Shown here piece after piece: positions 4,018-60,024 of a DNA stretch of 60,024 bases. This DNA comes from Dirinaria sp. TL-2023a (taxonomy: Eukaryota), in contig JAVEBF010000009.1 in assembly GCA_051941275.1 (NCBI GenBank), positions 1 through 60,024 of the forward strand. Direction: 5' to 3'. How positions within the stretch are numbered: position 1 is the stretch's first letter; each line of letters starts with the position of its first letter. The translations under genes were made by a program, and so were the position numbers. The notes below the pieces were generated by a model that saw only the letters and a program-made list of their open reading frames with translations, ran no database searches and had not been told where the DNA came from.

Positions 4018-5501
4018 GATGGGTTATGGCAAAATGTGGGACTTAAGATCGTGCTCCGAACATGGGACTGGGGTGCTCCGTCTCCACGTAATGGCTGATG
4101 CTGGGTAGATTACTGGCGCATGATGTAGAAGCGCACAGGAAGCAACCGTTCTGTGGCAAGGATCCGAGGGGTGCATAGCAATGGATTGACGATAGAAAAG
4201 CAAAATCCGTATGTACAGAGGGAGTCAAGTAGGAAATTCGGAGCCACAATCGAACGGCGAAAATTTGTACATGGACAAAGTAATGATTTGGCCGGAAAGA
4301 ACATGGAAAAGTAAAAAAACCCCGCCGCGTCAAATCAAGCATTGAATTTTGACTTTTCCAAAGCTCTGCCGCTACGGAGATTAAGGTAAAGTACATACAC
4401 TAAGGTATCTAACGCCAAAAGTCCCCGGCGAGCGTCATGTACGCCAAGACTATTCGTCCCCAGGTGACTACCTAAAGGTACAGTACCTACATAAGGTAAG
4501 GTACCTTACCTGGTAACGTCTTGCTACATAGGTAAACCCCGCCGAGACCAGAAGACATGGGTTACGAGTATGTACGGAGTACTACTGTAGCCACCCCGAT
4601 AAGATACTGCAACTTCCCTTGCTCATTCACTCTGACGTGCCTGATCCTTTACCTGAGCTAGGTTGGCTCGCTCGCTTTCGCCTTCTGGTTTCATGCATAG
4701 TTACGGCGAGCTACGGTATTTGATCTTACTATTTGATTTTACCTCTAGCATCGGTGATGTGTCGGCCCGTCAGAGAACATCACGACTGGCAATAATGAAG
4801 CGAGGGAGCTACCATTCGAAGGAAGTTTTTGCCTTACACCTCTGTTCTGCGTGACAACTAAGGTCCACAATCATGTAGAGTACCGTAGTCCGTACGCCGT
4901 ACCTAATTCTCCTGAGTTCATCTCATTCCCCGCCCCCGTAATGCTAAGTTGTAGTCTAGCCGGGCAGCTTAGCTAGGCCCTGTTCGTAACAGTGAGTGTA
5001 TCTGGGGGAAAGACACTGGAACCCCCCCCCCCCCCAACCATTATCGTTGCTTTGCCCCACGGAAACGCCACTCATTATGCCAGTAAGGCTCGCAATGAGT
5101 CAGGGAGCGTGTGTCTTCGACATCCTCTGTCCTGGGAGGATCGATTGGCCACGTTTGACTTCCGAGAAGCGTTTCTTAAGCGCAAAAGGGAGCCTGCCCT
5201 ATGTAGTCTGAAAAGAGTCCGGCCCCAAGGACCAATGTAATGGCAATATGGGATGGGCTTCTGAGGCAAATTAATCCGAGCTCTATCGATGTCCTCTGCC
5301 TTTGATCACCCTATTCCCGAGGATCATTTCCATGAGCTGACAGCGTCTGCCTGCAATTTCGAAGGACTGACTTCTACTAATCAATGGTGGATATTCTGCC
5401 CCTTCAAAAATGTTTGGAACTTGAGCAGTCCCTTCCCATGAATGCCCGGCTCATCCCATCAGATCGAGCTTAATCTTAGTCCGAGTCGAGCTTGCCATCA
5501 T

Positions 5502-15395: not shown

Positions 15396-16600
15396 CTACC
15401 TCCGGCTCTTCCTCTCAAGTCTCGGCCTTGGTCCCTGCCGCCTAGGTTGGGCAACGTAACGGTTGGGCTTCTTCGGACTCCTGGTCTTAAACCCGCCTTT
15501 CGCCTGTCATCGTATCAGCATAGTGAAGCACCAAAACAGTAGAAAGAAGATTAACGTACCAGAGTCCCCCATATACTCTGGCTGACAGTATTCCCTTTAC
15601 TCTTCCCTCGCCCCCCACCATGAGGATGCTCATTTGCATTCATAGCTACACCCCTCACCGTGGGCCGGATGCCCAACCAGCGGCTCCTGCCAGCTTTTCC
15701 CAATTGAGCCCGGCCATGAAGGTTGTTGCTCGCGACCCCGATAGTCGCACACGCATCCCTGTGGATCTTCCGCACTTCTCCGCTCCTCAGCCTCACATCG
15801 ACGTACAACGACCTCTTCCGGTTCTCCGGTTGGTCCTCGTTTTTGTTCAAGACCATGGCCCAAGTACCTGCCGAGCGGCAGATCTGACCCCCCTTTTTCG
15901 GATCGAGACCGACATTAAACACGACGGTCCCGGTCGGTATCATGTGTAAGGGAAGACAATTACCCCGCCATGCCGTTCTCGCAGCAAGCAGCCCTATATC
16001 CAGCGTGCCGCCCACGCCGTCCACCAGATCCCGCGGTATGCCTTGCCGGAACGACTCGACCACCTCGCCGGCACGCATGCCTTGCGGAGCGACAATGTAG
16101 CTGAGTTTCCCCGTCGCGTTGTTCTTCAGGAGCGCGATATGCGCCGACCTGCCCGGGTCATGTTCGATCCGCTCCACCGTCTGCTTCCCTCCCTCCATGC
16201 GACTGAAATCCACCATCCGGATCCGTCTTTTGTGCCCACCTCCCCGGTGCCGCACGGTGATTTTCCCGGTGTGGTTCCGACCACCGATATGATGGCCTTT
16301 TCTGGGGAAGGTGAGAGGATAGTAGGGTCGGCCTTTCCATAGATGATCGTTGATGGGACGTTTGAGATGGCGCAATCCAGGGGTTCGGGGCTTGTATGTA
16401 CGGAGGCCGGCACCTACGTCGGGCCTTTTAAAGCCCTCAGAGCTCTGACTAGCAATGAGTGCAATGGCTTCGAGGGGAGGTGGAGGAGGGTCGGAATGGT
16501 CAGGGTTCCCTTGAGAAGCATAGGTGCGTGATGAGAAGGAAGGATATAGGAACGGCAGGCGGTTTACATAGCAGCAGACCCGTAATCTTGGCTGAAGCAT
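15396..16600 (-). CDS. RML2: Mitochondrial ribosomal protein uL2m
   Basis: [70 protein letters not shown]; one intron before last exon AKGGFKTR..; ATG 16600 gives a basic presequence. Confidence 0.93.
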
Positions 16601-16922
16601 TGTGCACTCGCTATGCTTTGTAGTAGTAGTAGTCCCCAGACAGTTTAAGCATAGATGACCGAGGAGGCCTTGGTAGCGGACTGTTGCTGTTGTTGCGTTC
16701 GAGCTTTGAGCCTTTGCCAAGGCCGAGGATGAGATATGCAATTACTCCGTATGCATGGCACAACTCTACCTTACATAATGCATGAAATCCTGCCTTTCCT
16801 TACCTACTTTATTCTATCTTGGTGCTTGAGGTCATCCTCGTGCGAACGCATTAGCTTCGACAACATGCATGGTTCTCAATTATATTTCCTCTACCTCTGA
16901 GACATCGCCCGCGATAGACTCT

Positions 16923-18822: not shown

Positions 18823-20076
18823 ATGAAGATGCAAGCTGCCAACAGATTACGAAAGGTCTTAAAAGCCGGGTCAAGTGCGTCTTTTGGGGCATGGCAGATG
18901 CTCCCCGGAACAAACCATAGCCGGACTATTGCTCGCTGCGGCTACGACTGGATGTGTGTAGATACTGAACACGGCAACATCGACGGTATAGCATTGAGAA
19001 CCCGAAGATCGTTGTATTGAAGACGTCAAACCCCGCACAAAAATGCTGACCTTCATCCAGACGGCAGTATGCACGAGGCTGTTGCTGCAATCGCTGCTTG
19101 TGGAGTCAGTCCAATCGTGAGGGTCGCAGCAAATGAAGGCTGGATGATCAAGCGTATGCATTGCATAATGTCTCATGATCGTCGCTGATCCACTCAGGTG
19201 CTCTTGACTCTGGCGGTAAGCTCTAGCCGATTTCGCAACGGCCGTGTCTCCAATGACTCTTGTATGCTCAGCCCATGGCATTATCGTACCGCTTCTGCGT
19301 ACTGCACAGGACGCCAGAGATCTTGTTCAATCTGCAAAGTTCCCTCCAATTGGCCAACGAGGGTTTGGGTCCCTTTTGTCGATGGAGAAGTTTGGCGGCA
19401 TCACGCTGGCAGAGTATTTGCAACAGGCCAATGATAGCCTGTTGACAATTGTTCAGATCGAGACCAAGGAAGCTCTGCAAAATGTACGCAGCTTGGCTTT
19501 CGAACTGTGGGTCAATTATATGCTGAATGTACACATAGCTCGACGCTATTGCACAAGTACCAGGGATCGATGTCCTTTTCGTAGGGTAGACGCTTATTTT
19601 CCATTCATGTATCCCCAATGTTGGCAATTGTGAAAGGAATTGGCTTCCCTGAGCCTTGTTCCACCGCAAGCTAATAATGCATCAGAAGAATATGCTAACT
19701 CGTAGACTATAAGGCCCTTCGATCTAGGCAACAGCATTGGGCATCCGATTCTTGATGGCACAATGCATGAAGAGCTGAAGGACGCTATCGTGAAAGTGCA
19801 GGAGGCGGCTAAACAGCACAACAAACAAACAGGCATCTATGCAACAGGGGGCGACCAAGCCAGAGAGTTTGTAGATCAAGGATTCCACATGGTAAATTAC
19901 CCTTTAAATATGCTTTTTCTCTCAGCTTTAACCGGACCCATTAGGTATCTGTAGTAACGGACATGATAGCGCTCCCAATGGCCATGAGCTCGGCACTCGC
20001 AACTGCGAAAGGCTCGTATGCGCATTCTGCTCTGAATCTGGCAAAGGGAGCTGCGTCGAAAGTGACAGGTCGGTAG
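18823..20076 (+). CDS. HpcH/HpaI aldolase family protein, multi-exon
   Basis: FGAWQMLPG..DWMCVDTEHGNID, IVRV, micro-exon ALDSG, AKFPPIGQRGFG, IVQIET, VPGIDVLFVG/PFDLGNSIG. Confidence 0.9.
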
Positions 20077-23424: not shown

Positions 23425-25598
23425 GCCTCGAATGAGCGACGAGCATCAACGAGGAATATCTTTCTCAAAATATCATCCTCTTGACGGCGAATTTGAACTG
23501 CTGGCTCGTTTGGGTTTAGCGGGGATCTCCTTCCGAGGAGCCAAGGAAACGCGGAGGACCCCCTTCGGACTTCATTGTCGAGTATGTCTTCCAGGGTCGC
23601 TATCTTCTACGATGATACCGGTTGCGATTTGTGCTGTCTGAATTTTGGCAGACCAGATCGACGACCGGGTCATTCAAGATATGGCTGGGTTGAGGACCGC
23701 AAGTAATTGAACCTTGAAAAGGTTGGCAAAGACTTGAGCTTATGATATGTGTTGCTCTGTATAGCAAACGCTTACTAATGCTATTTCTTCATAAGATAGG
23801 TACTGCAGTCACGATCAAGTCTTCATCTTCCACTCTCTTGAATGGAGTCTCATTGCAATCCTGGTCTCTGAATATGTTCGGTAGCTAGCATATAAAATCA
23901 TTGGTCCACTTTTGGTCTGATGTTACGTGGTCCTAGATTTCCTTTCGTAAGTGTCCGTATTAAATTCGATGACATTTCAACGGCAGGTAGAGTATTGCCT
24001 TATGAACACGTGACTTTGGCATGTCCAAGGGCTGGGTAAAGCGTTGGTCGTAGCAATCATGGAAAGTGTGAAGAATGCTGTACCATCTAGCGTGATGAAC
24101 GCCGTTAATGACATCTGATGGATTGATAACGCAAGGTCTGGTCATACGAATAAGCTGGACTTTTGCCAATCTCTCCAGCTAATTTCCTGACGAGACTTTT
24201 GATGGATTCTCGAAAGGGACTCCGTTGGTCAGCTGGCCACAAATCGCCAATAATAATGAGTCGGATCCCTCCTACCCTACGGAAGAGCAGCTTCATCCGC
24301 CTAGGTACCTTACCTTAGGGTACACGAGACCGTTTAAGGTAAGGGTAGTGCCGAGGCTGCCACAAAAATCATAATAAGGGTTGCCTCATTCCCGTCCAAT
24401 TAAGTGGCGTCCCGTCATCCCCGTTATCAAGACGACAAAAGTCCTAGCTTACGCCATCAGCGTTTTTAAGTAGTGATATGTAGTGGCCATGTGGAGATTA
24501 GCGTGTTCAGAACTAAGTTATGATACTACCTATCACCTAGACAATCTAATCTGCTACATGTCAGGAGCTCGACGCAATAAGTCCTAGCTAGCGCCATGTA
24601 CGCCAACGGAACACTGTACAACTGGACCTTGGCTTGCACAGGCACGCTATTTTACCGAGCTTACTCAGGTAGGAATTCTGACTCGTCCGAGTGATAAGTT
24701 TGGGTGGTCAACCGGGCGACTTTCGTTTGATGTCACTGGTGGCCCTGACCGCGTTGGCTAGGACTCCACTATATCAAGGTATACGGGCGTAAAAAGGCGA
24801 TGTACGCTCGATATCGACCTTCTAAAGTGCAACCTAATTTTAGGGCACCGCACGCATGCTAGGACTTTTCTTACCACATCACTATGAATAATATTAATAA
24901 CGGCGGCATAGGACAGAGCAACGTCATTTGGTTAGCCGTACCTTAGGTACCTAATGTCATGTACGCCAAGGCTGTTGTTTAGGTACAGGTAGTTTACCTC
25001 CGTAGGTACCCACGAGTGCCCTTTGGCGGGCGCGGGTGCGACCCAGGTAACCAGCTTCGGTGGTCCCCGGGGCGACTTTCAATTAGTCGCATCGGTTGCG
25101 TCGTCTTCCATTGCGCCTCGCTCTCCGTACGGACGTACTCCGTTGGTACTCCTACTGTAAGGTATGAAGTCCCTTAAAACCCAAGTACCTTGTTTAGACG
25201 TCAGATAAGCTGCAGCAGAAAGGTAAAAGGTGAAACAATTATCTATGTATTGTGTATCCGTTGCAACGCCAATCTGCGTAAGTTCCTGCTATTATATGTC
25301 TGAAGACTTCCTAGCCAAACTGCCTGGGAAACCTGACCTCCTTTCCATCTTGCCATCCAGAAATCCCTCGGTCAGAGAAGAGCGAGATCGTCTCTCTAAT
25401 TTGGAGTGGCTATCAATCTCACCACGCGATCTTATACTCTGAAATTTAGGTATCCTGTCGGAATGATGCAAGATAAGGCCATATTGCAAAATAACTGAAG
25501 TTGTTTGTGGATTGTCACGAGAATAAAATCCAAAATTCCAAAATTAAGTTGGAGTCCTAATATAAGAGCTTGACTTTGATTCAGCTAAGGTTCGATCA

Positions 25599-36658: not shown

Positions 36659-37445
36659 GCGGCAACCCTACACCGAACTATTTACCAGCCTGCGTCCAGT
36701 TGATACGCTTATGTCGACTATCTATCGATTTGCGCCAAACACGCTATTCGCCTGAGGGCCGTGTCACCTGCTTCCGCTGAAGACCCAATCGTGACCTTCG
36801 GGAAAGAGAGTAGCTCGGCTACAAGACTGAGAATGGAGAACGCCAGCGTGTAGATGTAGCTGACCCATTTGTGAAGCCGCAAAGGGGAAGGGGGAAAGAG
36901 AGCTCACACACGTATCGTGCATCTGAACAATGATTGCAACGAATAGGTTAGAGCCAGATCAGGACTGCCACCCAAAGGTGTGGATTCAGTAGGCTACAGC
37001 CAGGGCTAACGCCCGATCCTGGACGTCAGGCGCAGAATTGTCCTAACAGAATGTTGTATAAAGAGGTCGAGCCTACTCAATATAATGGTGATCGTCTGGG
37101 CAGGGCAGCGTCTCGATCGTACAGTGCGTTGCTTATGTACGGTACGCTAAGAGGCTCTCGAAGCTGCCTTGGAAATTAATCCTGACAAAATAATTTTGAG
37201 GCATAAGGTAGGTATTGCATCCGACGTTGGGTCCTCGACATGTACTGTAACTCCGCCTTCACTACGTGAAGGTACTGTACTCAGGTACTGAGGAACCTAC
37301 CTCACTGTAGGTAAGATCTTGTGTACCTTTACCTTCCATAGATGTACTGTAGGTAAGGTATTGTAAACAGACCTTACTGACAATTCTGAGTCCGATTGGC
37401 TCGGGTAGGATCTACTCTCAGCCACTCTCTTTTCGCTGAAAATGT

Positions 37446-37485
37446 CGGATCTCGGATGACGGAGGACGGAGGACGGCTCGGACGG
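37446..37485. promoter_or_regulatory. Array of seven CGG triplets (candidate Zn2Cys6 binding sites) upstream of the MFS pump
   Basis: CGG at 37446, 37453, 37460, 37467, 37474 (7-nt period), 37479 and 37483. Confidence 0.45.
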
Positions 37486-37718
37486 AGGTACTGGCCGTCG
37501 ATCTCCCTCGTCATCGACAAATTTTGGACGTTCTCTCCAAGGTACCTTAGAGAGGGGCCTAAGATAGGTATCTAAGGTACTTGACGTATTGCATCATCTT
37601 AGTTCGGGAAAATGACGAAACCATCATGCGCGATCCTTGCCAGTCGTGATTTTATTTCATCTCATCTTCACCCTGTGCAGGACACCGCAAACAATTCGCA
37701 ATTTGACGTCCGGAAGCC

Positions 37719-46742: not shown

Positions 46743-49700
46743 AAATAGAATCAGGGCGGAATAGCCACTAGCAGCCATGCATGCTATCTAATTGCGAGCG
46801 CTTCCAAAGACTACAAAGTGCACGGTAAACAGATATGTGAACTATCATGAGAATGTTCACTGAATCAAGCTCGACAAGGTCAACCGCCGTTGTGCTCATT
46901 CTACCGTGATCCTGATACTAATACTACTGTGGTGCCTCATCACCCCTCGCCACAACACTAAGCATGCACTCCAAGCAGGGTTCATAAGACTATGTCATGT
47001 TGCCTTGTTAATAAGCTACATCAGCATTTGGCGATGGTTGCATATTGCTCAATGTCCCCTACCCCCAAGACCTAGATGATTGAGGTGCTATTTGGACTAT
47101 GACCCGGGTTGTACCGGGTCCCATGATTGTCGCTCTAGCTATCACCGAAATGTAGGAGGTAAGTCCGCCATTAAGTTTGAAAGAGCGCATTCATGATATA
47201 CGTTTCGTATGAGCAACCAGAATGTGTTTATGAGGGTACAAATCCTTGATTTTCCACAATTGGAAATTGCGCAATTGGTCTCCCTTGACTTTACCAGCTA
47301 GAGCAAGCTTTCATAAGGTACTTAGCGTTGCTAGCTGTGCCGGACATTGATATCGCGTTTTTCCTATTAAAGGCGGCGCTACTGTGTCAGACTACAGTAG
47401 GCGGAAATGCTTACATGGTGCTGGTCAAGAAATAGTAATAGAATTGGTGGTGAGACTGTGCCATTCTGCCGGATACAACTCGGCTTCACAAGTTAAGCGG
47501 CAGCCACTGGCTACCAGAAAGATTTCAAGAATGTCCAAGATCTAATGGTAGTCCGACGTAATTCATGGTAGTCGATAAAAGTAAAGTAGCAAAGATTAGA
47601 ATGCCACGTGCAAAAATCGGACCAATGCATCCCAAGTTCCCAACGTCGATACTGTCATACCTTAATTCGAACCGTTAGTGCGCTGTGGACTACCTAAGGT
47701 AAGGTATGCTGAGTAACGCAATCCACGATGGGAGAGTCCAGGCTCAACCTAGCTAGGGGCATTTGCATTCTCTTTCTCGGCCAGCTCAATCATGGTGGCC
47801 GTACCATTGTCAAGTGGCGGGAAGACAGAATAATGCTCTTTGGAAATTTCAGGTGGACGTATACCCGACACTGCAATAGAGCAGTCTTCTTTCGTAAAAG
47901 CGCAGACGCGACCAAATGTTGATTGTTTTCAATCAAGGACAAATATCATTTTTCAGAATCTCAGAAAAAGCCCAGCCTCACTCCACAACTTAATCAAAAT
48001 CAAGTCTTGAAGGCGACTGTAGGCAGTATCTACCGCCATCTGTAAAAGACCTTGAAGAAAGATAGTCAGAAAACATATCTCAGTATTTGTCGATACTTTA
48101 TTCAGCCTTGCAAATTGAGATTTGCGCCCCTAGGAGCGGGGGGCACCGGTACCGGAGACCACGGATGATTTTGCCTAGAGTAGCTCCAGACGCAGGCAAA
48201 GGCTACGGGTTAGCTTTGGCCTTTGGATATCACAAATCCGAAAGATATCCCGGGAATGACGACAGACTGACTACTGCCCGTTGTCTAGTCATCCCCATTG
48301 AGGAAGCGCTCACCGGCGTCGGCAAATCTGCGACCTTACACTGCGCTCAGCTAAAAAGAAAAGAAATGACAAAAACCTCCACTGAAAGCTGGTTCAACGG
48401 GATAAAGCGGTAAGTGGTAAAAGGAAATACCAAGGTACGTGGAGGCTGGGGTCAGGTTTCCTTAGATGGCGGAGCGACTACTGCATGGGGAATAGGTTGG
48501 TCAAGGCTGCAGATTACGCAGTCCAGCTTGGCTTGTATCAATACGGCTGGGGGAAAGAGGGAGAAGCGATTGGAGGAAGAGGCGAATAAACAGCATTATT
48601 ATCAAGATTCGAGGGTAAGGTACCAAACAGCCAGTCGAAAAATAGAGTGCTTGTGTCAGCACTCAGCAGCAAGCGAACGGGCTCTAAAATCGACTATTCG
48701 GGGCGCCAGGGGTCCCCAGCATGACCGTTTACCGCTCCGGGTAAAGCACGGCCTACCGGAGCCTTGTCACAGGAGGATGAATCAACTTACCTACCTTACC
48801 TCCGTACATGATTAGTCCAAACCATACCGAACACTCGTACTCGTACCTTACGACCCCGAGCAGCTCCAAACAGGTTGGGTTCGTTCCACACTGCTGGAAA
48901 GCAGCGGTGACTTTTGTCAGCAGCTGCGTGCAATCGAAAGTTCTATGAGCCTTCCACGAGACCGCCACATGTTTTTCTGCCCACGCGCCAAGCGCGCATT
49001 GGTAGGCATCAGTCCAAACACCCGGTAAGGTAGGTCGTGTGTTCCGTCTATCTTGCTGAAGAGGTTGGATTCTTCAGGCGTTCCTCGCGAATTGCACTGC
49101 CGGTTGATTAGAGATCATCTGTGCCTTACACTTTTCAGCCGCACCGCGAAAACGTCATTCATCCATTCGACCTAGGCCCTGAAAGTTGAAACAAGCTGCC
49201 GAGGAAGCCGTACACGCAATTGTGACCCTTAAAAAGTCGGTGCATTTTAGAAAGACATGATTAAATGGCGTAAAGACCTCCACCGGTCGTTTCGTGCACC
49301 GATGAACGCCCGAGCGAGCACTGAAAACCCCATGATCGGCCGAAACTGTTCTCTGACTCTTCAAGCTTGATGGCACTTGATGGCGTAAGCCACTGGGAAT
49401 ACCCGTTTGAAGCTTTTCGCAGCGTTCACCGCGATAACGATCGGTAGGCTGGATTCATGTGTTCGTTGGTTATTATTCTTCTGACCGCCATTCCATGGGG
49501 TTAAGGATGCACTGCCTCGATAGGCCTTGGCTTGATCCCCCTGGTCATGCACCCTACCTTATCTCCGACTTACTTAGAATATGTGCGTTTGCACGACCCA
49601 ACTGGTGCAGTGAAAGCTGATAATAGACTCTATCAAGGACATTTAATATGTATTTTGCTCTTGAACCTAGGCGAATCCAATCGGTGGTGTGCGCTTTCGC

Positions 49701-56505: not shown

Positions 56506-58037
56506 GACAAATTTGAGATGTCAGATATCAGCTGTGATGGTGTTGATAGGCGTGAAGAAACTACAGGTTCGCTAAATGGCAGGAGATGAGATGAGTCGTA
56601 GTCTGAGATGTGACACGAGGTTGTTTACCGGGAACCCTGTATAAATGCGCTACCTCGGAAAAGCAGTGCTAGTACCTGCCTAAGGTAGTAGCATTTACGG
56701 AGTACTACCGAGGTGCTGTACTGGGTAAGGTAGGTAGTTTTCGCTACCCCCGAGGACTCCGAGTCACTAAGTAAATACCGGGGGTGGGGGTCGAATGGGC
56801 GGGGGTCGAGCATGGACATAACTAAGGGTACTGAGGTAGCCACTTTCTAGTGTGCTGCGCATGAGTCAAAGAGTCATTCATCATATTGTTTTGTTACCAA
56901 ATCGCACAAGCTCCACCAGCGGTCATCGGCATTTGCGCATCGGTGCAACCGTAGCCGATATTGTATACCAAGGACTTCTCCATCTTCAGCTAGAGTATGC
57001 TAGGTATCTCGAGCGTGAAAATACATTGCTTGACGATAAAACTCTGTAAATACACGCCTCAATTGAGTTAAATTAGTCTGATCGCGTCGAGTCGATACTC
57101 GATTCAAAATTCGATGAATCGAGAATTTCGAGTCAATTCGATCTCAAAATATTGACCCGAATAAACGAGTCGATTTTTAAATATAAGATCGAGCATTCGA
57201 TTCGATTTCTAATTTTGAAATCGAGTATCGTATCGAAGTATCGACTCGAATCGAAAATAAACTGATATGAAAAAAGAGACAATCGTCTGAAAAATGATCT
57301 AATGAGCATAATATAATGATAATAAGATGAATGATCCTCTAGTCAGATCTCTCTGAGCGAGTTTATATACTCGCTCAGAGCTAAACTAGTTTTTATCAAA
57401 CTAGTCGTCGTACTAATTCTAATTAATAAATTATTTATCTTTATATCGTCTAATTTTTATCAATTGATAGCATCAATAAACGTCGACGCTCTCGTCGAGA
57501 TATTTTTCGTGATACTCGTTGATCGTCAGTGTCATGATACTTTGACTATTACGGTCTAGTGACTTATTACGTGAGATGGGTGAAAGCTTTTTCCAAAGTT
57601 CTCTGAGATTAGTAAAACTCAAACGAGTACTCGAAAACTTTTATATAGTTTGATGTTATCGCTTTATTAACGCTACGTAAATTTTAGTACGATATACTCG
57701 CAATACTGTCAAGTGATTGCGAGATCGTATAAAATAAAAAGATCATTCTCATCTCGAGAACTTGAGTTTCTCAGTAATTAGTTTTGATAATAATAAATTT
57801 CTTGTTTCTCATACTGTTGCACATTGTCACATAATTTAATTAATATTTGATTTTTATAAAAAACTTTTTATTAGTATAACAATTCTAATTACTTTTTTTC
57901 TAAAAGTGATAATTCGTATACAGTATAATAAAAACAACTTAACAAAAACGTGTCGCGTCGCGATTTATAAATGTGCGCGATCTAAGTGATGAATTAAACG
58001 AGAATCAACAACATAAAAATGTTTTAAACGAGATAAT

Positions 58038-58262
58038 TGTTACGAGCATGCACCTGGTATACTACCTGGGGCAACACCTCCCAGGGTTCTCAGGGGTAAT
58101 GCGCTAACCCGATCGGGGTGTTTACCCGACACCCGCACACACGCATATATACCCGGGACTCCCTATTGTATCTAGTTTTCCTTCTTCTTCTTCTTTCCTT
58201 CCTTAGTGATAATATCTTAGTTAACTATACCTGCATTGACTTGCTCTGCACCGGTCCTAACA
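58038..58262 (+). mobile_element. LTR family A, copy 1 (225 bp)
   Basis: TGTTA...TAACA termini; homologous inverted copy at 58697-58910. Confidence 0.88.
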
Positions 58263-58375
58263 TGATTAGATAGATTTCTCAATGATAAAAGTTCCGGCAT
58301 GACCAAAAGACTAACTAAATCAAGTCAAAGAACTTGATGCCTATCTTACTACTTAGGTGTTCCAGGGTCGTAACA
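58263..58375 (-). mobile_element. LTR family B, 5' part (its 3' tail lies at 58911-58932)
   Basis: Reverse complement aligns to 59188-59298 with 10 transitions and one small indel. Confidence 0.85.
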
Positions 58376-58696
58376 GCAGCAACATTTGTCACATTTTCAT
58401 CGACGTCATCAGTTTTCAGAACGTGAGTTACAGTGACGACGAACGTAGCAGCGACGTCGTCGACATCTAAACTCTTTATCAACAAAATTACAGAGATTGT
58501 AGTTCGTCTGAACGATAACAATGCGAAACAAAAGCTCAGAAATCAAAGCGCGCAGCAAATTGTAAACAAAATCAATGCGAGCATCGAGCAAAACGATTTC
58601 ACGACAAAAACTATTAAAGCGATTAAAAAATTACTCAATGACGACATCGTCATTCACACGATTGACAAAAAAAAAACAACAACGAAATTTAAAAAC
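58376..58696 (+). pseudogene. Degraded fragment resembling LINE (Tad1-like) ORF1/gag
   Basis: EIVVRL..QQIVNKIN..IKAIKKLLNDDIVIHT resembles a mutated KLPSGDI-type motif; no CC or GG in 58381-58700. Confidence 0.5.
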
Positions 58697-58910
58697 TATT
58701 AGAACCGGTGCAGAGCAAGTCAATGCAGATATAGTTAACTAAGATATTATCACTAAGGAAGGAAAGAAGAAGAAGAGAAGCTAGATACAATGGGGGTCCC
58801 AGATATATACGCGTGCGGGTGTCGCGTACCCCGATCAGGTTAGAGCATTATCCCTGAGAACCATGAGAGGTATTGCCCCAGGTAGTATACCTAGGTGCAT
58901 GCTCGTAACA
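58697..58910 (-). mobile_element. LTR family A, copy 2 (inverted)
   Basis: Reverse complement TGTTACGAGCATGCACC...CCGGTTCTAATA aligns end to end with 58038-58262. Confidence 0.88.
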
Positions 58911-59187
58911 AATCAAGGTTGAGTCTTTGACATTAAATCAAGTCAACACGATCGCAAGATTCTGAGTTCGAATCTCAGCTCGAACGTTTGAAAAGTTATT
59001 TTTCGACGAGATCTATCGACTGAGAGTTTATCTAAACTCGAGACGACTACTTGTTTCGATAAACGTGCATTGATTTCTGAGCGTTATGAGTCACTCTGAT
59101 TAGCTAGCATTCTTTACAGAATCTTGAATCTTCTTACTTCTCTCAACGCTAGCTTCGAAACGAAACTAAATCGAGAGATCGAGATAA

Positions 59188-59315
59188 TGTTACGATTCTG
59201 AAACATAAGTAATAAGATAGACATTAAGTTCTTTGACTTGATTTAGTTAGTCTTTTGGTCATGCCGGGACTTTTACCATTGGGAAATCTATCTAACCAAG
59301 ATTGGATCTTTGACA
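59188..59315 (+). mobile_element. LTR family B, probable solo LTR (128 bp)
   Basis: TGTTA...TGACA termini flanked by GATAA / GATAG, a possible 5-bp TSD with one transition. Confidence 0.75.
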
Positions 59316-59320
59316 GATAG

Positions 59321-59758
59321 ATCTTATCTCTCTCTTTTAACTAAGATGTCATTTTTCTCTTCTTGTTTAAATATAAGAATCATCGATTCTATATCTTAAC
59401 AATATTTTCGTGTATTTTTTTAAATATTTCGATTCTCTTTTTCGTCGCATTCGCAAACACATTTGTTTTTTGATGTTCGAATAAGTTTGATTCTCTGTCA
59501 TAATTCGTAAAGAATGAAGTCGTTTTCGTAATATCGAAGTGCTTTGAGTTTAGTATCAATTGTGTCATAAACAACAATGATACTCAATTACTATGTGTAC
59601 TGTTGACATAGTGTCGTAAATACTGTTTCAAACTCTGATTCGTTCTTTTTGTTTGTTTATCGATCTCTGAGTGATATGTCGTTGACAATCGAAGTTTCGT
59701 TCTCAATAATAATATAAAAGTTCTTTAATAATTTGAACAAAATAATTTGTCTCGATCG
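59321..59758 (-). pseudogene. Degraded Ty3/Gypsy integrase fragment
   Basis: DRDKLF.SNY, LSTTYH, NQSLKQYLRHYVN..N*VSLLFMTQLILN, SFFTNY, L.ERDKIYL, with stops and a frameshift. Confidence 0.85.
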
Positions 59759-60024
59759 TGTTACGAGTCTGGTTCTCACTGTTGTTACTCGGGTCATTTT
59801 CTACAAGGTTTTTGTGTGTGGTGTTGAGTTTTGACCTGATCGGGGCTAGCGCATCCGAAGTGGTGATCGATTCGACCGATCAGGGTTCAACGCTCACACA
59901 TTCATATTATGCCCGATTCTAGTTCATAGATTTTTTTTCTTCTTCATGCTTTGTGTATTTAGTTGATAGTATCTGCATAGATTATATCTTCTGCATCGAT
60001 CCTGATATTACACAAAGTATCAAA
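59759..60024 (+). mobile_element. Probable third LTR (family C) interrupting the integrase remnant
   Basis: Begins TGTTACGAG like families A and B, with a composition shift; right end not established. Confidence 0.45.

Follow-up and report, generated by a model that had tools for sequence, protein, structure and literature searches.

Evidence for RIP-like mutation with a CpC preference in retrotransposon relics of the lichen-forming fungus Dirinaria

The AT-rich end of the contig

The window analysed here is a whole contig of 60,024 nucleotides (JAVEBF010000009.1, assembly GCA_051941275.1) from the lichen-forming fungus Dirinaria sp. TL-2023a; the genus belongs to Caliciaceae, Caliciales, Lecanoromycetes. 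Positions 1–56900 are gene-dense and have a GC content of ~50%. From ~57004 up to the contig end the GC content drops to 31–41%, and the last 3 kb, at ~32% GC, consist of retrotransposon relics. These relics are the subject of this report, as they carry a pattern of C-to-T change that resembles repeat-induced point mutation (RIP), with CpC as the favoured target. The border between genic and AT-rich DNA lies within ~50 bases (57003/57058), and the mutated zones are sharp-edged. They are broken by islands of normal CC/GG density, namely the repeats themselves and 59771–59913. The features are listed below (LTR, long terminal repeat; ORF, open reading frame), with one gene of the genic part given last.

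57004–58037, no strand assigned: left AT-rich, CC/GG-depleted block, which begins abruptly past the last genic CC/GG at 57003
57080–57260, no strand assigned: TCGA-dense stretch, read as YCGR words turned into TCGA
58038–58375, plus strand: LTR-like unit of 338 bases (LTR-A copy 1 plus LTR-B copy 1) with TGTTACGA...TCGTAACA ends
58381–58698, plus strand: CC/GG-free gag/ORF1-like retrotransposon gene fragment, with ORF 58427–58702
58699–58911, minus strand: A repeat, inverted second copy
58918–59187, no strand assigned: CC/GG-free block (0 CC/GG)
59188–59306, minus strand: B repeat, inverted second copy, with homology ending at ~120 bases
59307–59770, minus strand: CC/GG-free block with Ty3/gypsy integrase-region homology, homologous to an element in locus L002 of another assembly
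59771–59913, no strand assigned: GC-normal island at the contig end, with a word GATCGGGG..TAGCGCAT in common with the A repeat (by eye only)
15551–16741: mitochondrial ribosomal protein L2 gene

The ORF at 58427–58702 encodes 91 amino acids, none of them Pro, Gly or Trp. In a representative protein library it has 15 relatives at E ≤ 1e-3, and three relatives (507–529 amino acids) look intact and bear CCHC knuckles. Pfam left the family of these three gag relatives unnamed, a protein atlas yielded no more than a pointer to retrotransposon ORF1/CCHC-type proteins (scores 0.87–0.94), and a scan of viral contigs with the gag alignment returned 304 pattern matches, none of which was confirmed. At the other end of the region, 59315–59736 aligns to L002 15598–16019 (66.7% over 429 bases), within a Ty3/gypsy element that has RVT_1 and Tf2-1 SH3 domains. 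The relatives of the gag-like ORF and the Ty3/gypsy integrase homology identify the AT-rich blocks as nested retrotransposon relics, in which fragments of a gag/ORF1-like gene and of a Ty3/gypsy integrase lie together with short LTR-like pieces. None of the 12 ORFs of the AT-rich block had a Pfam match at E ≤ 0.01, and a tandem-repeat search of 56900–60024 found minor arrays only.

Two small sequence features accompany the LTR-like pieces. The GATCGGGG.TAGCGCAT word of the terminal island is also present in the A repeat at 58100–58125 and 58830–58850, and the island may itself be a third LTR-like fragment, though a more distant one. A purine-rich CGAGATAA(T) word precedes both TGTTACGA LTR-like starts (58038 and 59188, in windows 58026–58045 and 59176–59195); by eye only, it resembles a polypurine tract.

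The most conspicuous property of the AT-rich blocks is the loss of CC and GG. The initial annotation had described 58381–58700 as devoid of both while CA, TG and CG were kept, and this was borne out: 0 CC/GG were observed against 21.0 expected (the minimum of 2000 shuffles was 9), with CA 33, TG 10 and CG 24 retained. CC/GG are likewise absent from 58918–59256 (21.6 expected) and 59305–59770 (19.8 expected), and over the three CC/GG-free zones the minimum in 2000 shuffles was 8–9. In the left block, 57058–58036 contains 7 CC/GG against 45.7 expected, with observed/expected (O/E) ratios of 2.5 for CG, 1.57 for TC and 1.43 for GA; the slightly wider interval 57004–58052 contains only 8. Across the window blocks CG is present at 1.7–2.5 times and TC and GA at 1.4–1.6 times expectation, TA has an O/E of 0.47–0.86, i.e. 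there is no TpA enrichment, and all CC-containing trinucleotides fall to 0.02–0.07 of their genic frequency. The abundance of TCGA at 57080–57260, also pointed out earlier, amounts to 16 copies in 181 bases against 0.59 expected, and the TCGA frequency in the blocks (0.019) compares with 0.015 for the sum of CCGG, TCGG, CCGA and TCGA in genic DNA. When the blocks are compared with the genic DNA of the same window, apparent retention is 0.09 for CpC, 0.65 for CpA, 0.90 for CpG and 0.82 for CpT. Equal depletion in single-copy DNA had been named as an outcome that would speak against repeat-targeted mutation; positions 1–56900 show no depletion (CC O/E 0.95, GG O/E 0.93), and CC and GG taken together reach an O/E of 0.94 over the 57 kb of genic DNA versus 0–0.2 in the AT-rich blocks.

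Self-comparison of the window revealed only two repeats, both inverted and each with 87.6% identity between copies: repeat A (58037–58260 versus 58699–58911) and repeat B (58255–58375 versus 59188–59306). The copies earlier called LTRs are inverted rather than direct repeats, and they form short, little-mutated islands within mutated zones. The 338-base unit at 58038–58375 has normal CC/GG density and differs from its partners by ~12%, mainly by transitions. A transition-tolerant alignment did not carry B past ~120 bases, and a reading of the right-hand A and B copies as parts of a single interrupted LTR was abandoned. In the core of pair B there are 10 substitutions, all of them transitions (10:0); CC>TC or GG>GA changes account for eight of them and CpT and CpA contexts for one each, which matches exactly the hand count made beforehand. 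Pair A, for which CpC changes among mixed ones had been reported, indeed carries ~13 transitions (~7 in CpC, 3 in CpG, 2 in CpA and 1 in CpT context) and 3–4 transversions. With the C/G state taken as ancestral and counts normalised by available copy-sites, C>T changes in the window pairs are found at 14/92 CpC, 2/66 CpA, 3/40 CpG and 2/80 CpT copy-sites; the comparison of CpC (14/92) with the other contexts (7/186) gives a Fisher odds ratio of 4.6 (p = 0.0013).

Mutation spectrum in related copies and codons

When metagenome contigs were scanned with an alignment of the closest ORFs, seven loci in other lichen-fungus assemblies were found. L003 and L004 are identical over 16,211 bases and L005 and L006 over 20,213 bases despite their differently named assemblies, which are therefore not independent samples, and the two exact duplicates were left out of all counts. 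In L002, L003, L005 and L007 the flanks contain ordinary fungal genes, and genic DNA of 50% GC adjoins AT-rich blocks at 15–35% GC; L001 is AT-rich over its full 2,277 bases and has no GC-normal flank. One gene flanking the L002 element is 88% identical to a protein of Heterodermia (Physciaceae), and the other named best matches are from Lecanoromycetes. CC/GG depletion is seen in every AT-rich block of the five non-duplicate loci, where CC+GG O/E is mostly 0–0.3, CG O/E ~1.3–3 and GpC O/E ~1.2–4. The signature spans blocks of 6–11 kb, including an unrelated Ty3/gypsy element and a separate AT island (L007 4726–6041), and restriction to repeats with adjoining genes spared is also found in L002, L003, L005 and L007. 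Apparent retention relative to the flanks is 0.01–0.07 for CpC, 0.48–0.71 for CpA, 0.25–0.63 for CpG and 0.63–0.85 for CpT, with the L003 flank used as a proxy for L001. In the most degraded blocks of L002, L003, L005 and L007 the GpC O/E is ~2 and reaches 4.2; the window blocks, at 0.53–1.18, are without this GpC excess.

The mutation spectrum was determined from ten long pairs picked from 43 BLAST pairs, with some copies used more than once. The per-copy mutated fraction was calculated as n1/(n1+2*n2), in which n1 is the number of sites with one copy mutated and n2 the number with both retained. The CpC estimate was 0.70–1.00 in all ten pairs, and pooled values were 0.76 for CpC, 0.42 for CpT, 0.30 for CpA and 0.23 for CpG (CpC versus CpA: odds ratio 7.3, p = 3e-37), although former CpC sites that go unrecognised probably raise the CpT value. 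The clearest cases come from two Ty3/gypsy elements, whose LTR pairs lie in L002 (14308–14729 versus 19190–19611) and L007 (10484–10896 versus 16394–16806). These pairs have diverged by 11–12% through 47 and 48 transitions, respectively, and contain neither transversions nor gaps. In L002/L007 the mutated fractions are 0.71/0.75 for CpC, 0.23/0.19 for CpT, 0.17/0.14 for CpA and 0.05/0.04 for CpG (CpC versus other contexts: odds ratio 18.9, p = 3e-8). Overall, CpA and CpT are mutated at a ~5–8-fold lower rate than CpC. Up to nine consecutive changes in these pairs are on the same strand of the same copy, and in all four pairs examined both C>T and G>A are present in copy 1 as well as in copy 2. 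Since both LTRs of an element start out identical when it integrates, their present differences show that the process acted later, on genomic DNA. A table of 5′ by 3′ neighbours indicated that a 3′ C raises mutability for any 5′ base (0.50–0.65). There is also a weaker effect of a 5′ pyrimidine (CCA 0.33 and TCA 0.36 versus ACA 0.17 and GCA 0.10), and a 5′ G is protective (GCA 0.10, GCG 0.04).

The direction of change was assessed independently from codons. The motif KKLPSGDIAIHT of the intact gag relatives reads KKLLNDDIVIHT in the window, with Pro changed to CTC and Gly to GAC, and Pro+Gly content is 9.5–11.8% in the intact relatives versus none in the window ORF. For the codon test, the three intact proteins were compared by tblastn with the window and the five loci at 177 columns that are invariant across the three proteins, and only transition-compatible codons were counted, which left out two of the 28 Gly codons, one of the 19 Pro codons and six of the 14 Trp codons. 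All 26 Gly codons had changed from GGN to GAN or AAN, with GGN kept in none and AGN found in none; within GG, the altered G is the one preceded by G. Position 1 of Pro CCN was T in 16 of 18 codons, and the remaining two had lost position 2. Trp was mutated at position 3 in 6 of 8 codons. CpC saturation in this test is 92–100%. CpA contexts were mutated in 19/28 His/Gln codons at position 1, in 20/31 Cys codons at position 2, in 7/7 Met codons at position 3 and in 7/8 Trp codons at position 2; the pooled comparison is 48/52 for CpC versus 53/74 for CpA (p = 0.006). These CpA counts mean that canonical CpA mutation is present as well and is strong in the most degraded copies; CpC mutation has gone to completion throughout. 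A hand tally of Arg codons, only approximate given the ambiguity of the Arg codon family, gave mutation of CGN at position 1 in 6/23 and at position 2 in 9/23, and AGR>AAR in 14/28. Among 64 relatives of the gag-like ORF, nine have neither Pro nor Gly (one of them 405 amino acids long) and 12 more have ≤3% Pro+Gly. The 405-residue relative P0125 is free of Pro and Gly, yet has several Trp in the alignment; should GG>GA mutation be saturating, the gene caller may have translated TGA as Trp at these positions.

The observed composition was further compared with simulations in which context-dependent C>T changes were applied to the genic DNA of the window. A one-step model with rates of 0.95 for CpC, 0.3 for CpA, 0.15 for CpT and 0 for CpG correlated with the blocks at r = 0.99, 0.94 and 0.89 (k = 2, 3 and 4), the dinucleotide fit being partly by construction, and gave a GC content of 0.325 versus 0.321 observed. 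A CpA-only one-step model reached r = 0.49, 0.39 and 0.33 (k = 2, 3 and 4), and CpT-only and CpG-only models were also rejected. In iterative models with the Neurospora order of contexts, with uniform rates or with all contexts but CpC, CC+GG was never depleted (O/E 0.9–2.1 at a GC content of 0.31 or 0.22). The iterative model that used the rates of the foreign LTR pairs yielded, at GC 0.31, O/E values of 0.14 for CC+GG, 1.99 for CG, 0.71 for TA and 1.44 for TC+GA. Rates measured in the foreign LTR pairs therefore predict a composition close to that of the window blocks.

Standard RIP indices respond poorly to this pattern, as the initial annotation had anticipated for TpA/ApT-type measures. 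In the mutated blocks TpA/ApT takes values of 0.58–1.10, (CpA+TpG)/(ApC+GpT) of 0.80–1.05 and the composite index of −0.37 to +0.23, all near neutral, and the blocks would fall short of the stringent RIPper thresholds. The (CpC+GpG)/(TpC+GpA) ratio of RIPCAL, on the other hand, is 0–0.10 in mutated blocks versus 0.72–1.00 in genic DNA. In the window as a whole, the word TAAGGTA occurs 36 times against 3.8 expected, clustered in intergenic, GTAC/GGTACC-rich stretches (4251–4750, 24251–25000, 37001–37500, 47300–49600 and 56680–56740) with TpA/ApT of 1.4–1.7, a composite RIP index of 0.6–1.07 and a normal GC content of 0.46–0.49. These stretches would be false RIP positives by canonical indices, and the words may represent a promoter or intergenic motif family. 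A homopolymer C run of ~14–15 bases is also located in intergenic DNA, at 5018–5038.

Origin of the pattern

Retrotransposon relics make up the last 3 kb of the contig, and they have most probably undergone RIP-like, repeat-targeted C-to-T hypermutation after their integration, with the order of contexts CpC >> CpT ~ CpA > CpG. A CpC-preferring process is supported by four independent lines, namely composition, copy-pair alignments (95 transitions and no transversions in the two LTR pairs), the directional codon test and forward simulation, and in this respect the original proposal of repeat-restricted C>T mutation with a CpC preference stands. Several hallmarks of RIP are observed: C:G to T:A transitions are overwhelming, the changes are confined to repeats and transposable elements with sharp borders, and they affect both copies and both strands after integration. 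The hallmark that departs from classic RIP is the context, as in place of a CpA preference with raised TpA/ApT and lowered (CpA+TpG)/(ApC+GpT) the targets follow the order given above, with CpC 5–8-fold over CpA. The proposal had gone further and placed CpC instead of CpA; this part needs correction, since CpA and CpT are also mutated at the lower rates given above and CpA sites are substantially lost in the most degraded copies. The agent would be a homologue of the RID/DIM-2 type of cytosine methyltransferase, acting premeiotically with an altered flanking-base preference; we infer this from the general RIP literature and from the report of both genes in Cladonia. No RID/DIM-2-type gene was found among the 9 of 14 long ORFs of the window that were scanned.

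Such a process would act on the genomic DNA of integrated retrotransposons and, in the Caliciales lineage, would target a C followed by C, favoured by a 5′ pyrimidine and protected by a 5′ G. CpC sites would saturate first and other contexts would follow later and more slowly. Saturation of CpC would convert CC to TC and GG to GA, turn CCGG-type words into TCGA, and replace Pro by Ser, Leu or Phe and Gly by Asp, Glu, Asn or Lys. Short or younger LTR-like pieces are only lightly mutated.

Several points weigh against this interpretation or limit it. Alignment evidence inside the window amounts to 21 transitions in all, and the lightly mutated repeats of 338, 213 and 119 bases (CpC 14/92) within saturated zones may reflect the escape of short repeats that a length and identity threshold of RIP would allow, but could equally be younger insertions. 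The ancestral state in the alignments was taken to be the higher-GC state, and an apparent CpT may conceal a former CpC. The 3′ C of a CC is itself often lost: ancestral CC became TC in 165 cases, CT in 120 and TT in 32. Among the most degraded copies ~70% of CpA is mutated, which reveals a canonical component. The foreign loci were found via peptide patterns from already mutated ORFs, which introduces an ascertainment bias, and the number of species behind them may be as low as two or three, all closely related. Finally, a simple 3′-neighbour model does not yield the GpC O/E of ~2 seen in the deep loci.

Three other origins of the pattern were considered. Slow spontaneous deamination of 5-methylcytosine in permanently methylated transposons, by way of a CpC-preferring maintenance or de novo methylase and with no premeiotic repeat-mutation step, would likewise give transitions only, restriction to silenced repeats, changes on both strands and sharp borders, and deamination driven by an enzyme is inseparable from deamination of a methyl mark by sequence alone. 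However, the LTR pairs have accumulated 95 transitions at 11–12% divergence with 0 transversions and 0 gaps; therefore, the process must have run very much faster than ordinary mutation. The saturation of CpC at 92–100% and the runs of up to nine same-strand, same-copy changes, which suggest processive events, also argue against slow decay, and we consider it improbable. Editing of retrotransposon cDNA during reverse transcription by a single-strand, AID/APOBEC-like deaminase that acts on a CC motif would fit the retrotransposon origin of the mutated material, and CC-context deaminases exist in animals. APOBEC3G, for example, targets the 3′ C on single-stranded cDNA and leaves one-strand GG>AG changes. 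The CC dinucleotide context is common to both cases, but here the change is GG>GA, on both strands and after integration: Gly GGN went to GAN and never to AGN (26/26), i.e. the opposite G is altered. One-strand bias with LTRs that stay identical, as such editing would leave, is contradicted by LTRs that were identical at integration and differ by 47–48 transitions over both copies and strands. This origin is very improbable.

It is even less probable that no mutation process was involved and that the blocks are by nature poor in CC and GG, or result from a compositional or assembly artefact or from chimeric joining. The block does lie at a contig end of a metagenome-assembled genome, with only 3 kb in the window. 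Yet each of three zones has 0 CC/GG where 20–22 are expected and no shuffle of 2000 fell below 8–9, the intact protein relatives contain Pro and Gly at 9.5–11.8% where the window ORF has none, and independent assemblies show the signature beside fungal genes. The codon test, the copy-pair alignments and the shuffles all contradict such an artefact.

RIP-like mutation with a preference for CpC differs from the systems described in other fungi. In the available text of PMC5496416 the order of contexts is CpA>CpT>CpG>CpC for Neurospora crassa and CpA~CpG>CpT>CpC for Trichoderma reesei. The RID- and DIM-2-dependent RIP of N. crassa is alike in its repeat-confined C:G>T:A changes in both copies and strands, its sharp borders and its AT-rich relics, but CpC is the least favoured context there and the most favoured here, where TpA is not enriched. 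In T. reesei, RIP was shown experimentally and the context order also departs from that of Neurospora; CpC is again the least preferred, which is the opposite of our observations. Lineage-specific shifts of context are known from the Aspergillus nidulans MATE element (CpG/CpA) and from Microbotryum (TpCpG), as given in the accessible part of PMC2621366, and TpCpG hypermutation in Microbotryum and Pucciniomycotina is described in that of PMC3318451. These shifts are toward CpG, whereas CpG is the most protected context here, with a mutated fraction of 0.04–0.05 in the LTR pairs and a CG O/E of 1.7–3.

Implications for lichen-forming fungi

RIP has been reported in the lichen fungi Cladonia rangiformis, Xanthoria spp. 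and Endocarpon pusillum (available text of PMC12542154, 10.1101/2025.11.25.690456 and PMC3897900), and the first of these sources reports RID and DIM-2 homologues in Cladonia, a Lecanoromycete. As in our loci, AT-rich compartments derived from transposable elements lie beside GC-normal genes. In the portions available of these papers and of PMC9907504, RIP is called by GC content or TpA/ApT-type indices, and no CpN context for lichen RIP was found in those portions or in the corresponding ones of PMC7882544 and PMC4943192. A kingdom-wide survey from 2025 describes, in its accessible part, a CpA preference shared by RIP-like defences and names four classes with strong recent RIP signatures, Lecanoromycetes not being among them there (PMC12543289). 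We found no report of CpC-preferring RIP in the open-access literature searched, subscription papers being outside the scope of the search. A tentative extension of our findings, which we place just below an even chance, is that the flanking-base preference of the RIP enzyme has shifted to a 3′ C in Caliciales, and perhaps throughout Lecanoromycetes, or that a second, CpC-specific pathway has been layered over a CpA one.

RIP is a classic fungal genome defence, and a lineage that favours CpC would show that its target context is evolvable. Such a lineage would open a comparative route to the deamination chemistry of RID and DIM-2, which is as yet unproven, and, if the pattern is confirmed, natural enzyme variants would be available for mapping the determinants of RIP context specificity. 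A CpC preference would account for the weak scores that the large AT-rich compartments of lichen mycobionts obtain in TpA-based measures, and CpA-based surveys would then systematically under-call RIP in lichen fungi. The (CpC+GpG)/(TpC+GpA) ratio would suit as a detector for binning and annotating lichen metagenomes. As CpC>TpC creates stop codons only via TGG>TGA, heavily mutated ORFs would stay open, and mutated transposons would be annotated as Pro/Gly-free ‘hypothetical proteins’. Predicted proteins without Pro and Gly can accordingly be flagged as mutated transposon ORFs.

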